The notes under the pieces are model-generated. The model was not told the origin of the DNA. It saw only the letters and a program-made list of their open reading frames with translations, and ran no database searches. Shown here piece after piece: positions 60,501-64,000 of a DNA stretch of 64,000 bases; position 1 is the first letter of the stretch, and each line of letters starts with the position of its first letter. The DNA comes from Prevotella sp. (GTDB lineage Bacteria; Bacteroidota; Bacteroidia; Bacteroidales; Dysgonomonadaceae), in the NCBI GenBank assembly GCA_031285625.1, contig JAITVV010000025.1, positions 32,005 through 96,004 on the forward strand, written 5' to 3'. Made by a program: the position numbers and the translations under genes.

Positions 60501-60573
60501 GCGAAAGTAGCTCAGTTGGTAGAGCACAACCTTCCCAAGGTTGGGGTCGCGGGTTCGAGCCCCGTTTTTCGCT
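60501..60573 (+). tRNA. tRNA-Gly(CCC)
   Basis: GCGAAAG acceptor, CAACC-TTCCCAA-GGTTG anticodon arm, GGTTCGAGCCC; TAATTTTG promoter at 60482-60489. Confidence 0.96.
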
Positions 60574-60580
60574 CGAAAAG

Positions 60581-60662
60581 GCGCATGTGGCGTAATGGTA
60601 GCCGCGCTGTCTTCAGGTGGCAGTGGACTATGTCCGTGGGGGTTCGAGTCCCTTCATGCGCA
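60581..60662 (+). tRNA. tRNA-Leu(CAG)
   Basis: GCGCATG/CATGCGC acceptor, CTGTC-TTCAGGT-GGCAG anticodon arm, long variable arm, GGTTCGAGTCC. Confidence 0.94.
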
Positions 60663-62219
60663 CTGAGAGCGACAAATTGAAGATTTCTTCTTTTTGTCGC
60701 TTTTTTCATTTCTATAACTTGCTATTTCTGTGTTGATTAAATGAAGAAATGAATTGTGTTTTGCAGTTCGATAACCTTCAATTTTTTGGTCATAGAAAAC
60801 ACCCTCAGGAAACACTAAATTTTGCAATTTTTCTTTCTTTACAATATCAAATTCTTTCCATAAACTACCTAATTTACAAGACATTTGCAGTGCATAATCT
60901 ACATACGGTTCATAGTTCGATAAATTTATTTCAGCAATTTCAAGTTTTTGCTTTAAATCAGTCAACTGTGGTGCAAGTTCGTTATGTACTGCATCATATA
61001 TATCTTTATCTATTTCACCGCACCCATATTTAACTTTGGCTGTTTGTATTTTATTCTCTATTTCTGTAATTCTTGTTTTAAACTGTTTTTGTTGGTTTAT
61101 AGCAATCTTATTCCAATCATTGAACAAATCCTTCATCATACATGAAAGAACAGGTTTAAACGCATCTGGAATACTGTATGAGCGTAATATATTAGAGTAT
61201 TGATTGTGTATCATCTCGCCCGAATAGTTTTTGCAACAACCAACAGTATTGCATTTATAATATATATATCTGCCTTTTTTAGTATAACTTGTTAAACTTA
61301 CTCCACATTCAGCACAAAATACATGTCTTCTTAATGGGTAGCTATCATTGATTCGCTCATGTTTGTAAGCGTATTTCTTTGATGTAGCTATGCCATTTGC
61401 CAAATCGAATAATTCTACTGATACAAGAGGTTTGAAGTTGGTAGCTTCTACCAACTCATCCCCTAACATTTTATGTTTGATATATCCCTTATAGAATGGG
61501 TTTCTAAAAATCTTAGATAACTCCTGTTTGGTCAGATTTAATCCCTCTTCACTTCTTAGTTTGAATAAAATCTCGCTGTTTGCTAAATTATCATAGGCTT
61601 TCCATTCAAAAGCCTTCCTAATGGATTCACCTTCCTTATTAATCACAATCTTGGTGGTTTCTTTACCATTGACAGTTTCTTTCACCTTCGTATATCCAAT
61701 TGGTGGTTTGAATGTACATATGCCCTTTTCTAACTTATTTTTTATACCTGTAAGACACTTCTTCCTTCGTTGCATATTATCATATTTCCCCATGATGAAG
61801 TGTATATCTTGCATCAATACACCTGAATCGGTTGATGTATCTATCGGTTGTGTTACTGAATGAAGATAGATACCTTCTTCTAACAATTCATCTTTCAATA
61901 CGATTGCACCGCCCCCACTTCGTGAAAAGCGGTCTAAGTCGAAAACCAATATTGTATTAATCTTTCTATTCTTTTTCGCATCAGTAATCATTTTGTTAAA
62001 CTCTTTCCTGTCGTCAGTTTTAGCTGATTCAAAAGTTAAGCCATAAGACTGGACTATTTCAATATTGTTTCTGGTAGCATAATCAATTATATACTTCATT
62101 TGTGTTTCTATGCTGCAATTATTATCAAACTGTTTCTTTGTTGATACCCTTGCATATGTATAGGCGAATAAGCCAGCTTCTGTTTTAGTTCTTTGCGTTT
62201 TTATATTATTCTTTTTCAT
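60654..62219 (-). CDS. Large serine recombinase (integrase)
   Basis: YARVSTKKQ catalytic Ser motif, ESAKTDDR, DLDRFSR, PPIGY recombinase domain, Zn ribbon CAECG...YYKCNTVGC, coiled coil. Confidence 0.93.
   Translation of the reverse strand: MKKNNIKTQRTKTEAGLFAYTYARVSTKKQFDNNCSIETQMKYIIDYATRNNIEIVQSYGLTFESAKTDDRKEFNKMITDAKKNRKINTILVFDLDRFSRSGGGAIVLKDELLEEGIYLHSVTQPIDTSTDSGVLMQDIHFIMGKYDNMQRRKKCLTGIKNKLEKGICTFKPPIGYTKVKETVNGKETTKIVINKEGESIRKAFEWKAYDNLANSEILFKLRSEEGLNLTKQELSKIFRNPFYKGYIKHKMLGDELVEATNFKPLVSVELFDLANGIATSKKYAYKHERINDSYPLRRHVFCAECGVSLTSYTKKGRYIYYKCNTVGCCKNYSGEMIHNQYSNILRSYSIPDAFKPVLSCMMKDLFNDWNKIAINQQKQFKTRITEIENKIQTAKVKYGCGEIDKDIYDAVHNELAPQLTDLKQKLEIAEINLSNYEPYVDYALQMSCKLGSLWKEFDIVKKEKLQNLVFPEGVFYDQKIEGYRTAKHNSFLHLINTEIASYRNEKSDKKKKSSICRSQCA
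60668..60706 (+). terminator. tRNA terminator overlapping the integrase 3' end in antisense
   Basis: AGCGACAAA/TTTGTCGCT stem with inner GAAG/CTTC and T tract. Confidence 0.7.
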
Positions 62220-62224
62220 CTTAA

Positions 62225-62386
62225 TTAATTATCTAATTTATTATTTATTCTAAATTGCTCATAAGTAAGTTGAGCATACAAATACATCTGGCTTAATACA
62301 GATTGTAATTCTTTTTCATCTGCAAACTCTACATTATTCTTTTTGAAAATTTCTTCATATTTTCTAATTTGTTCTTCATTAAACAT
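62225..62386 (-). CDS. Small 53-aa protein directly upstream of the integrase (not in the ORF track)
   Basis: Hand translation MFNEEQIRKYEEIFKKNNVEFADEKELQSVLSQMYLYAQLTYEQFRINNKLDN*; stop is 5 nt before the integrase ATG. Confidence 0.65.
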   Translation of the reverse strand: MFNEEQIRKYEEIFKKNNVEFADEKELQSVLSQMYLYAQLTYEQFRINNKLDN

Positions 62387-62673
62387 CCATAAAGATTTTA
62401 CACCTTTATTTTTTCCACAATAGCAATGCTATTGATATTCTTTTTTAAGAAAAAATACCAATCAACATATATTAGTAAGCTACTGGGTGACTACTTCCTA
62501 TGTTTGTGTTTTAACTAATATTTGCAATTGTACTATTTTTATTTTTCATTCCCAAATTCTGGCGTAATTTTTTTCTGGAATTTTTTTTATAGCACATCGA
62601 CACCTTCAGAATAATAGTACTCATATTTTGAGGACATAGCTTTTGTAAATTGACTCAGGATACCTTGGCGTAG

Positions 62674-62698
62674 GGGGTAGGTGGGGGATACCTACCCC
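62674..62698. repeat. GC-rich inverted repeat between the two recombinase genes
   Basis: GGGGTAGGT-GGGGGAT-ACCTACCCC, immediately after the small recombinase stop; no U tract. Confidence 0.7.
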
Positions 62699-62700
62699 TG

Positions 62701-63321
62701 TTACATTATTGCTTTAATTCTTCTTAAAGTATTTACGCTGGTATTCGTAATCTTTTGTATATTTCTGAGCGAATAACCCTTTCTCAATAGTTTGATATCT
62801 TCTGCATATTGGTTTTTCATAGCCTCATTATCTTTCCTATAACCAACTTTACGACCAACTGAACCCCCATTTTTAATGAAGTTTTGATAACCTGACCGCA
62901 TGCGTTCTCTAATGTTACCTTTTTCAAGATTAGCTATTTCAGATAGTAATGAAACAAGTAATTGAGCCATTGGGTTTACCTTCTTGTCTTCTGTTAATGT
63001 TTCAATATTAAGGTTTTGAATATATACTGAGACTTTATTCTCATTTAATAATGAAATAGTTTCAAGTAAGCCTAATTGGGTCCTATGTAATCGTGAAACT
63101 TCACTAACTAACACCTTATCGATATTGTTGTCTTTTACATAATTAATCATACGCAATAGCTCAGCTCTATCCTCTTGGCGTTTAGTCCCACTTACCTTTT
63201 CAGCAAATACACAATCAATTATCATATCGTTTCGCCTAGCAAAAGTGGTTAGGTCATTAATTTGCCTATTGAAATCTTGATTTAAAGTTGATACCCTTGC
63301 GTATATAACTACTTTCTTCAT
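62701..63321 (-). CDS. Small serine recombinase (resolvase/invertase family) with C-terminal HTH
   Basis: YARVSTLNQ, EKVSG, SEVSRLHR, IRERMRSG, VGRK and GYSLRNI..IT.TSVNT HTH. Confidence 0.92.
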   Translation of the reverse strand: MKKVVIYARVSTLNQDFNRQINDLTTFARRNDMIIDCVFAEKVSGTKRQEDRAELLRMINYVKDNNIDKVLVSEVSRLHRTQLGLLETISLLNENKVSVYIQNLNIETLTEDKKVNPMAQLLVSLLSEIANLEKGNIRERMRSGYQNFIKNGGSVGRKVGYRKDNEAMKNQYAEDIKLLRKGYSLRNIQKITNTSVNTLRRIKAIM

Positions 63322-63346
63322 AATCTGACTTTCATTAATTACAAAT

Positions 63347-63426
63347 CAAAGGTAATTATATTTAATATATCTACCAAATGAAATGGTATATATTTTTATT
63401 ATATTTACTAAAATACTATATCTTTG
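63347..63426. promoter_or_regulatory. Divergent promoter pair
   Basis: TACCTTTG on - strand (63347-63354) toward the resolvase; TATCTTTG on + strand (63419-63426) 5 nt before ATG 63432. Confidence 0.6.
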
Positions 63427-63431
63427 TAGTT

Positions 63432-63662
63432 ATGAAAGAAAAAGAATCACAACAAAGACAAGTTATTCATGTACATATTCTGAATATTGATGAACACCTC
63501 TATTTCGGCTCAATACAGGCTATTTACGACACTTTTAGCAAAGATGAGATTGGTATTGCTGCACAGACCTTATATAATCGAGGATTGGATGAAAAGTATG
63601 TAAATGATAAGGTAGTAATTAGAAAGGGTTTACTGCAACAAAAGAAACACCTAAAGAAATAA
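63432..63662 (+). CDS. Small hypothetical protein of Bacteroidales mobile-element type, possibly DNA-binding
   Basis: 76 aa: VIHVH...YFGSIQAIYDTFSKDEIGIAAQTLYN (HTH-like)...VVIRKG. Start chosen from the promoter position. Confidence 0.7.
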   Translation: MKEKESQQRQVIHVHILNIDEHLYFGSIQAIYDTFSKDEIGIAAQTLYNRGLDEKYVNDKVVIRKGLLQQKKHLKK

Positions 63663-63748
63663 TTATTACTTTTGTGCAAGATTATATTTATAGCGATAAG
63701 TATAATCTCATATTTAAAAATAAACGAAGCGTTTAATATTATCCTGTA

Positions 63749-63903
63749 ATAAGAAATCTGGTAAATTTTATAGGTACAAGGATAGTAAGCAGAACGTTCC
63801 ACGTCTTTTATAACAAGGGCGTGGGGCTGTTGCTTATTTGTACCTAGGGCTTACCAGAGCCTCTTATACGATAAGTTAGCAGTTCCCACGTATTCTATGC
63901 TAA
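63749..63903 (+). ncRNA. Candidate structured RNA (long interrupted hairpin plus a second hairpin)
   Basis: Five nested complementary segments, G-U pairs favouring the + strand, and an upstream TACTTTTG promoter at 63667-63674. Confidence 0.6.
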
Positions 63904-64000
63904 TATCCTAATGTTTTATTTGATTTAACAATAAATTAACTGTTTATTATTCTCAGTTGTCCTCTCTTGTATGCGGGATGCATAAAACTTGTACGTGTAT

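Follow-up and report, generated by a model that had tools for sequence, protein, structure and literature searches.

The hairpin at the end of the window (the whole 64,000-nt stretch that was analysed, contig C6:32005-96004, whose end is also the end of the contig) is one copy of a widespread Bacteroidota leader RNA family that is absent from Rfam. The family possesses two conserved, mutually exclusive folds, which supports a cis-acting conformational switch. In the window copy, an IS110-family insertion sequence (IS) parts the leader from its U-rich run, from a downstream segment complementary to its tail (segment d) and from the gene for a 78-aa membrane protein, now on contig C49; this copy should therefore be read as a severed leader and not as a free small RNA. 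To our knowledge, Bacteroidota largely lack Shine-Dalgarno-led initiation, and we know of few cis-regulatory RNAs in the phylum outside riboswitches. No relevant description of a Bacteroidota leader of this kind was found in the literature, and the window copy has led us to a two-state leader RNA that is widespread and still uncharacterised.

The Leader RNA in the Window and Its Distribution

The preliminary description, made from the window alone, had listed a TAnnTTTG-type box (TACTTTTG), five nested stems, a tail (TAGCAGTTCCCACG) and a second hairpin formed by TTAGCA and TGCTAA, and all of these motifs lie where it had placed them (Table 1). The + strand of 63740-63910 folds with a minimum free energy (MFE) of -58.7 kcal/mol, against a shuffle mean of -37.8 (sd 3.9; z = -5.3), and none of 200 shuffles folded as well; for the - strand of the same region z was -2.9, and 1 of 200 shuffles was as good. 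No ORF of at least 30 aa is present on the + strand in 63663-64000.

Table 1. Positions in the window of the leader features and of the adjoining insertion sequence.
Feature	Position	Strand	Remarks
-7 promoter box, Bacteroidota type (TAnnTTTG)	63667..63674	+	TACTTTTG; strict motif upstream of most copies
5' hairpin H1, predicted transcript start	63679..63708	+	12 pairs plus one U-G; loop AGCG 63692-95
Small hairpin H2 (AAACG / CGTTT)	63722..63734	+	Motif kept in most copies
Rod (fold A) with its helices P0-P5; contains the five stems	63739..63874	+	MFE and covariation
Segment a (TATTATCC)	63737..63744	+	Partner: start of the tail (fold A) or 63780-87 (fold B)
Segment b, 5' strand of P4-P5, after GGATAGTA	63780..63807	+	Covariation, duplex test
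Segment b', shared strand	63816..63838	+	Partner: b (rod) or tail c (terminator-like helix)
Fold B mini-hairpin (GGGC / GCCT), loop = P2 3' strand	63847..63862	+	Covariation
Tail c (GATAAG..CAGTTCCCACG), mimics segment b	63870..63890	+	Native leader sequence ends here
End of IS110-family insertion sequence, 1415 bp in full	63891..64000	-	Transposase on - strand; runs off contig

The genome from which the window comes carries two clear paralogues, one on C21 (72% identity, no IS) and one on C40, which is also followed by the IS, as well as two weaker model matches on C52 and C4, i.e., five matches in all. Searched by blastn with 63712-63897, 31 of 170 genomes of the same taxonomic family, the window's own included, proved to contain copies. 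Of 151 genomes taken from the whole order, 60 contained matches to a covariance model (R1; 160 positions, 51 pairs) built from 41 copies, corresponding to about 40% of the genera sampled there and with at least 19 matches in some genomes; in the phylum-wide sample the same was true of 21 of 151 genomes, among them all seven sampled genomes of one genus from another order. Most copies found in the order and phylum samples are single and dispersed across the genomes.

That the RNA could not be assigned to a named family was borne out for Rfam. A scan with Rfam 15, whose families include 6S, 6S-Flavo, C4 and the Bacteroides and Bacteroidales motifs, of window positions 62000-64000 with E up to 10 returned four chance-level matches, none of them in 63667-63903; in five intact loci the sole overlap was mir-1303 on the C21 rod, which scored 27.4 bits (E 0.13) where the gathering score is 107, and five loci of other orders gave no match. 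Similarly, blastn with 63665-63890 found nothing in 50,697 phage or 72,556 plasmid records.

Two Mutually Exclusive Folds Are Conserved

The rod (fold A) is maintained across the family. On the model alignment of 41 distinct copies, 90.3% of the cells form standard pairs, and 47 of 51 pairs show changes on both sides (354 cells); the covariation score of 0.517, compared with 0.206 in shuffles, was reached by none of 500 shuffles. In an independent set of 28 copies from other taxonomic families the proportion paired was 90.6%, with 45 of 51 pairs changed on both sides and a covariation score of 0.594 vs. 0.186 (again 0/500 shuffles). Both alignments were fitted to the covariance model, a bias that favours the structure; the rod is nevertheless secure because of the size of the effect and because controls in which the partners were slid by 1-3 columns gave covariation of only about 0.1. 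Among the pair cells of 40 distinct homologues, 217 are G-U or U-G and 45 A-C or C-A, which identifies the + strand as the folding strand, as the preliminary description had argued from the G-U pairs of the window alone. The loop of the rod varies from 5 to 16 nt among the copies.

The helices of the rod differ in how they vary. In both sets (41 and 28 copies) P2 and P3 change only by full Watson-Crick swaps, with zero or nearly zero G-U cells; unlike them, P4-P5 keep conserved U-G pairs. The P2 sequences fall into about a dozen classes, and the classes differ between copies within one genome. The near-absence of G-U pairs in P2 and P3 is odd for helices that would act purely at the RNA level.

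The alternative pairing (fold B) engages the tail. Run on a plain MAFFT alignment, RNAalifold returned the pairing of b' (the 3' strand of P5-P4) with tail c, and not the rod, with changes on both sides in 13 of 18 pairs. On the model alignment, the b':c helices together with the mini-hairpin are 86.6% paired, 22 of 29 pairs are changed on both sides, none of 500 shuffles scored as high and slid controls stayed at or below 0.153, part of this covariation resting on few lineages (the CACAC variants, for example, are related copies). Taken separately, the mini-hairpin has 91.3% of its cells paired and 4 of 6 pairs changed on both sides; one three-pair helix of fold B, drawn from the window's own fold, is 45% paired and not conserved. 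The a:b hairpin shows 87.3% paired cells, two-sided changes in 6 of 8 pairs (a count reached by 27 of 500 shuffles) and a covariation score of 0.289 compared with 0.184 in shuffles (0/500).

Duplex tests that need no alignment agree; for the independent set (alignment A5), whose ragged b' columns gave no structure with RNAalifold in the 3' part, such a test was used instead. Cognate b':c duplexes of the first set averaged -25.8 kcal/mol vs. -21.4 for non-cognate ones (0/5000 permutations), and the difference recurred in the independent set (-19.5 vs. -16.5; 0/5000). The b':c duplex is on average also stronger than b:b' (-22.6 kcal/mol), and where the rod has conserved U-G pairs, b' forms C-G pairs with the tail. 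In thermodynamic folding, the rod is preferred over fold B in 39 of 40 copies, with means of -62.1 and -48.1 kcal/mol and hence an average margin of about 14 kcal/mol.

Thus, the switch between exclusive pairings that had been proposed from the single copy in the window is borne out by its homologues, which carry compensatory changes in both folds. The tail that repeats the apical 5' strand and can pair with the 3' strand is real, conserved and covarying.

Promoter, Transcript and Downstream Gene

The strict motif TAnnTTTG, which we take to be the consensus of the Bacteroidota -7 box, occurs upstream of 35 of 51 copies; the opposite strand of that stretch has it in 5 of 51. Together with the folding energy of the + strand and the covariation, this supports the earlier proposal of a promoter-driven structured RNA. 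Hairpins resembling H1, in the same place and of the same shape, with ANNG loops, are found in family f1 copies; in the copies of some other families (L057, L058, L061, and L062) no such hairpin was predicted. In one public RNA run (X1) the leader is assembled on its own contig, which starts at 63700, passes through 63890 and enters a flank of the C49 type. The upstream ORF and the resolvase gene are on other contigs, and the promoter box falls within the gap, between 63653 and 63700; since contigs show neither ends nor levels, the break is only a hint. Two further RNA runs (X6 and X7) contained no contigs matching the stretch.

Downstream of the tail in uninterrupted copies, the 11 nt that follow its CACG have a T fraction of 0.70, compared with 0.34 overall (50 copies). 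About 25-30 nt further on, uninterrupted copies contain segment d, which is complementary to the tail: cognate c:d duplexes come to -12.3 kcal/mol vs. -10.4 for non-cognate ones (0/5000 permutations), and individual copies show clear co-changes. A same-strand ORF of at least 45 aa follows 61 of 62 copies, its start lying at a median of 50 nt (IQR 46-61) beyond the 3' boundary of the sequence profile, a boundary located about 10 nt downstream of the CACG in the tail. The C4 copy of the window genome, like a few others, has no nearby ORF.

The products of these ORFs tend to be exported. A crude hydropathy rule assigned a hydrophobic N-terminal window to 51 of 61, compared with 71 of 165 other ORFs of the same loci. 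Pfam named a minority of the 34 products scanned, and these are heterogeneous (outer-membrane beta-barrel, 3; Big_2, 2; Bor, 1; HlyD, 1; BACON, 1), with no common pathway that would hint at a ligand. In three loci of one genus from another order (L068, L069, and L071), which has one copy per genome, the leader lies 250-310 nt upstream of a gene for a SusC-like TonB-dependent receptor.

An IS110-Family Element Severs the Window Copy

The last ~110 bases of the window recur at the ends of contigs C40 and C20. The latter holds the body of a 1415-bp element encoding a 358-aa transposase with DEDD_Tnp_IS110 and Transposase_20 domains (E 5.7e-17 and 1.7e-14), and it is this element that accounts for the break of the window contig. 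Two left junctions (C6 and C40) and at least three right junctions (C20, C27, and C49) were identified; a third left junction was not found among the contigs of the window genome. Two of the three clear leader copies in this genome are occupied. In two public runs (one from RNA), contigs follow the window as far as 63890 and then continue with C49 sequence from beyond the element. There is thus an allele without the IS, and 63891 is the first position of the insertion. Past the tail, the native sequence on C49 comprises a U-rich run, a short hairpin and the 78-aa membrane-protein ORF; the element has landed precisely at the boundary of the tail (..CCCACG) with the U-run.

These junctions change two points of the preliminary description. 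The second hairpin (TTAGCA 63876-81 / TGCTAA 63898-903) is a chimera, since its 3' arm lies within the insertion and its arms are thus split between leader and IS; it is not native, and where the 3' arm stood, uninterrupted copies have the U-rich run and a different partner for the tail. Likewise, the RNA had been thought to control genes of the integrative element, a view that does not hold for a phylum-wide leader whose own gene, that of the 78-aa membrane protein, is on another contig.

IS110-family elements recognise their targets with the guidance of a bridge RNA (PMC11208160). The left non-coding end of the present element is 304 nt long and has a 12-bp stem. Within its loop are two exact matches to the target, each to a different strand: an 8-mer that corresponds to one flank of the cut and a 6-mer that corresponds to the opposite flank. 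Further words in this end match the ends of the IS (donor). No Rfam model matched it. Such an arrangement is that of IS110 bridge RNAs. The transposase domains and the guide-bearing non-coding end both conform to the family, the bridge RNA being predicted from sequence only. The element appears to be programmed for the stem/U-run junction of the leader family, and may be a natural example of a bridge-RNA-guided element specialised on the terminator junction of a regulatory RNA. ISPpu10, an IS110-family element, has been described as targeting REP sequences. In the leader family, too, a conserved multi-copy intergenic site is the landing place of such an element, but unlike REP the target is the terminator-like stem/U-run junction of a promoter-driven leader RNA.

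A Possible Role in Transcription Termination

Regulated transcription termination by the two-fold leader is a reading that we consider evenly poised between right and wrong. Window positions 63667-63890 make up the 5' portion of a leader RNA, about 330 nt long, that has its own promoter. In fold A, segment a pairs with the 5' part of c, and b with b', P1-P3 form, and the 3' tail is left free, later to pair with d. In fold B, a pairs with the 5' part of b, and b' with c, giving a 20-bp helix around the mini-hairpin with the U-rich run directly after it. Since a GC-rich stem base and the U-run end it, we read fold B as a putative intrinsic terminator, with the rod as its antiterminator. Given that b':c is the stronger duplex, the formation of P1-P3 would decide the outcome, and a putative factor with the P1-P3 arm as its target would control the extent to which transcription continues into the gene. 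As the rod is more stable in silico, transcription should normally read through, with termination depending on a factor that blocks P1-P3. Some observations speak against termination: the sole RNA contig (X1) reads through the site, with no 3' end seen at the U-run; the preference for the rod in nearly all copies implies that fold B needs help; and for a terminator, a stem closing a loop of about 45 nt is unusual. Also to be set against it are the few lineages behind part of the fold B covariation, the near-absence of G-U pairs in P2 and P3 and the lack of a common pathway among the downstream genes.

More tentatively, and with distinctly less confidence, we suggest that the family could be a Bacteroidota-wide riboregulator class for the exported and surface proteome, in which P1-P3 would sense an envelope-linked trans factor, be it a protein, a small RNA or a small molecule. 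Such a factor would tip the four-segment mimicry switch and gate dozens of otherwise unrelated genes (lipoprotein, outer-membrane, and SusC-like). The all-Watson-Crick P2 could in addition serve for loop-loop contacts, either within the off state or from one copy to another. The wide spread of the family, the conservation of both folds and the genes for exported proteins point to a common layer of cell-surface control, which would concern gut and environmental Bacteroidota.

The conserved c:d helix, which is possible only in read-through RNA, and the tightly kept distance from leader to start codon would also suit folds that act post-transcriptionally. The rod would then be a processing or stability element (e.g., an RNase III substrate) without regulated termination, and refolding between b':c and c:d would alter mRNA half-life or access to the AU-rich start region. 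That the rod is by far the stable state and that the RNA contig reads through agree with this alternative, which we nonetheless judge unlikely: a GC-rich stem base with a U-rich run immediately after it, as in b':c, is what marks an intrinsic terminator, and no complementarity between d and the start regions was found by eye.

The leader, or a terminated or processed form of it, could also act in trans as a small RNA, with cross-talk between family members, loosely in the manner of P4 CI or P1 C4 RNA. Fold B displays the P2 3' strand in an 8-nt loop of the mini-hairpin, from which it could kiss the P2 5' strand of other nascent copies. The multiplicity of copies per genome (five in the window genome, elsewhere at least 19), the purely Watson-Crick pairing and many sequence classes of P2 and the few copies without a nearby ORF, such as that on C4, are in line with such activity. 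The differing P2 classes within one genome, however, would limit cross-talk, and none of the C4 families of Rfam matched; we regard a trans-acting role as quite improbable.

Least credible, to the point of being very remote, is a DNA-level element, i.e., a recombination site, a cassette boundary (attC-like or rAID-like) or a palindromic repeat that forms a hairpin in single-stranded DNA: serine recombinase genes just upstream of three copies (window, C21, and L028), the targeting of the site by an IS110-family element, the tandem gene-after-gene copies in L047 and L074 and the scarcity of G-U pairs in P2 and P3 would fit it, but the conserved promoter box, the fixed orientation and distance to the next start codon, the excess of G-U over A-C cells in the rod as a whole, the variable loop length, the absence of a visible recombinase at most loci and the age and divergence of copies within a genome (72% identity) all argue the opposite.

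Other identities were rejected. A retron msr/msd, prompted by the long hairpin, was discarded since the downstream ORFs, as far as they could be named, encode diverse envelope proteins and not a reverse transcriptase, and a 6S-like RNA because of the lack of an Rfam match and the many copies per genome. Integron attC sites lie 3' of cassette ORFs, with an adjacent integron integrase and conserved R and L boxes; the leader lies 5' of ORFs and has its own promoter, and the recombinases seen are of the serine type, at three loci only.

Comparison With Known Systems

The leader would work like a terminator/antiterminator leader, a group that comprises the trp and pyr attenuators and the expression platforms of riboswitches. 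As in attenuators, it is situated between a promoter (box in 35/51 copies) and a same-strand ORF (61/62), and one strand is common to two exclusive conserved helices, one of which is directly followed by a U-tract (displaced by the IS in the window). Unlike attenuators, the family has no leader peptide, known aptamer or known binding protein, its competing strands are full mimics (b of c, b' of d, and a of the end of b'), its terminator-like helix encloses about 45 nt, and it occurs in many copies per genome, in front of unrelated genes.

The P4 CI and P1/P7 C4 RNAs are also borne on leaders, within which repeated and complementary segments compete and affect downstream expression; P1 C4 and P4 CI are processed from the leader and pair with target repeats of the same operon, in the context of phage immunity. 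The Bacteroidota leader resembles them in the competition of short repeated and complementary segments of one transcript, but differs in that it matches neither the C4 models of Rfam nor the phage collection, is not tied to phage immunity regions and has for the most part other surroundings than a phage. The processing or antisense activity that the preliminary description had raised, by comparison with P1 C4 and P4 CI, would be an analogy.

Intergenic repeats of Bacteroidales immunity-gene arrays, termed rAID-1, have been described (Ross et al., preprint 10.1101/471110; PMC12247911), the arrays consisting of an XerD-like tyrosine recombinase followed by co-oriented, short, low-GC genes separated by the repeats (10.1101/471110). 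As far as these descriptions go, the leader shares with rAID-1 the occurrence in Bacteroidales and the position as an intergenic repeat before co-oriented short genes, often on poorly assembled short contigs; unlike rAID-1, most leader copies are single and dispersed, and no tyrosine recombinase is seen in L047 and L074, the comparison being one of descriptions. Structured RNA candidates from the human microbiome, palindromic, 109-132 bp long and mostly from Bacteroidetes (Fremin and Bhatt, 2021; PMC8040213), were likewise compared by their text description, which gives neither sequence nor function. The leader may be related to the rAID-1 motifs or to these candidates, or be listed among them, as judged from the descriptions. 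Also considered and set aside were the FopS small RNAs of B. thetaiotaomicron, which have been linked to the regulation of polysaccharide utilisation.

Genomic Surroundings of Individual Copies

In G015, three leader copies are at or near contig ends (the end of C36 and the starts of C12 and C41), which suggests that some repeat follows them. A search with the transposase of the window IS in G015, G184, G210, and G243, chosen for their numerous copies or for copies at contig ends, found only a 34%-identical relative, located elsewhere in G015, and hence these contig breaks are not explained by that element. L048 (G019:C33, 7117 bp) has two identical, inverted leaders at both ends of the whole contig, reading outward.

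At window positions 60501-62219, genes for tRNA-Gly(CCC) and tRNA-Leu(CAG) are followed by a gene on the - strand for a 521-aa large serine recombinase. Since its 3' end and the tRNA-Leu gene share the final 10 nt of the latter, the integrative element probably sits at the 3' end of that tRNA gene. A small ORF of 76-86 aa without a Pfam family, present at window positions 63432-63662 (+) and at L028:1132-1389, lies in both of these unrelated loci between a divergent gene for a resolvase-type serine recombinase and the leader. Finally, a tandem leader-gene-leader-gene order is seen in L074 (G253:C66) and L047 (G016:C17), and in the former both genes are close paralogues with the same signal peptide.
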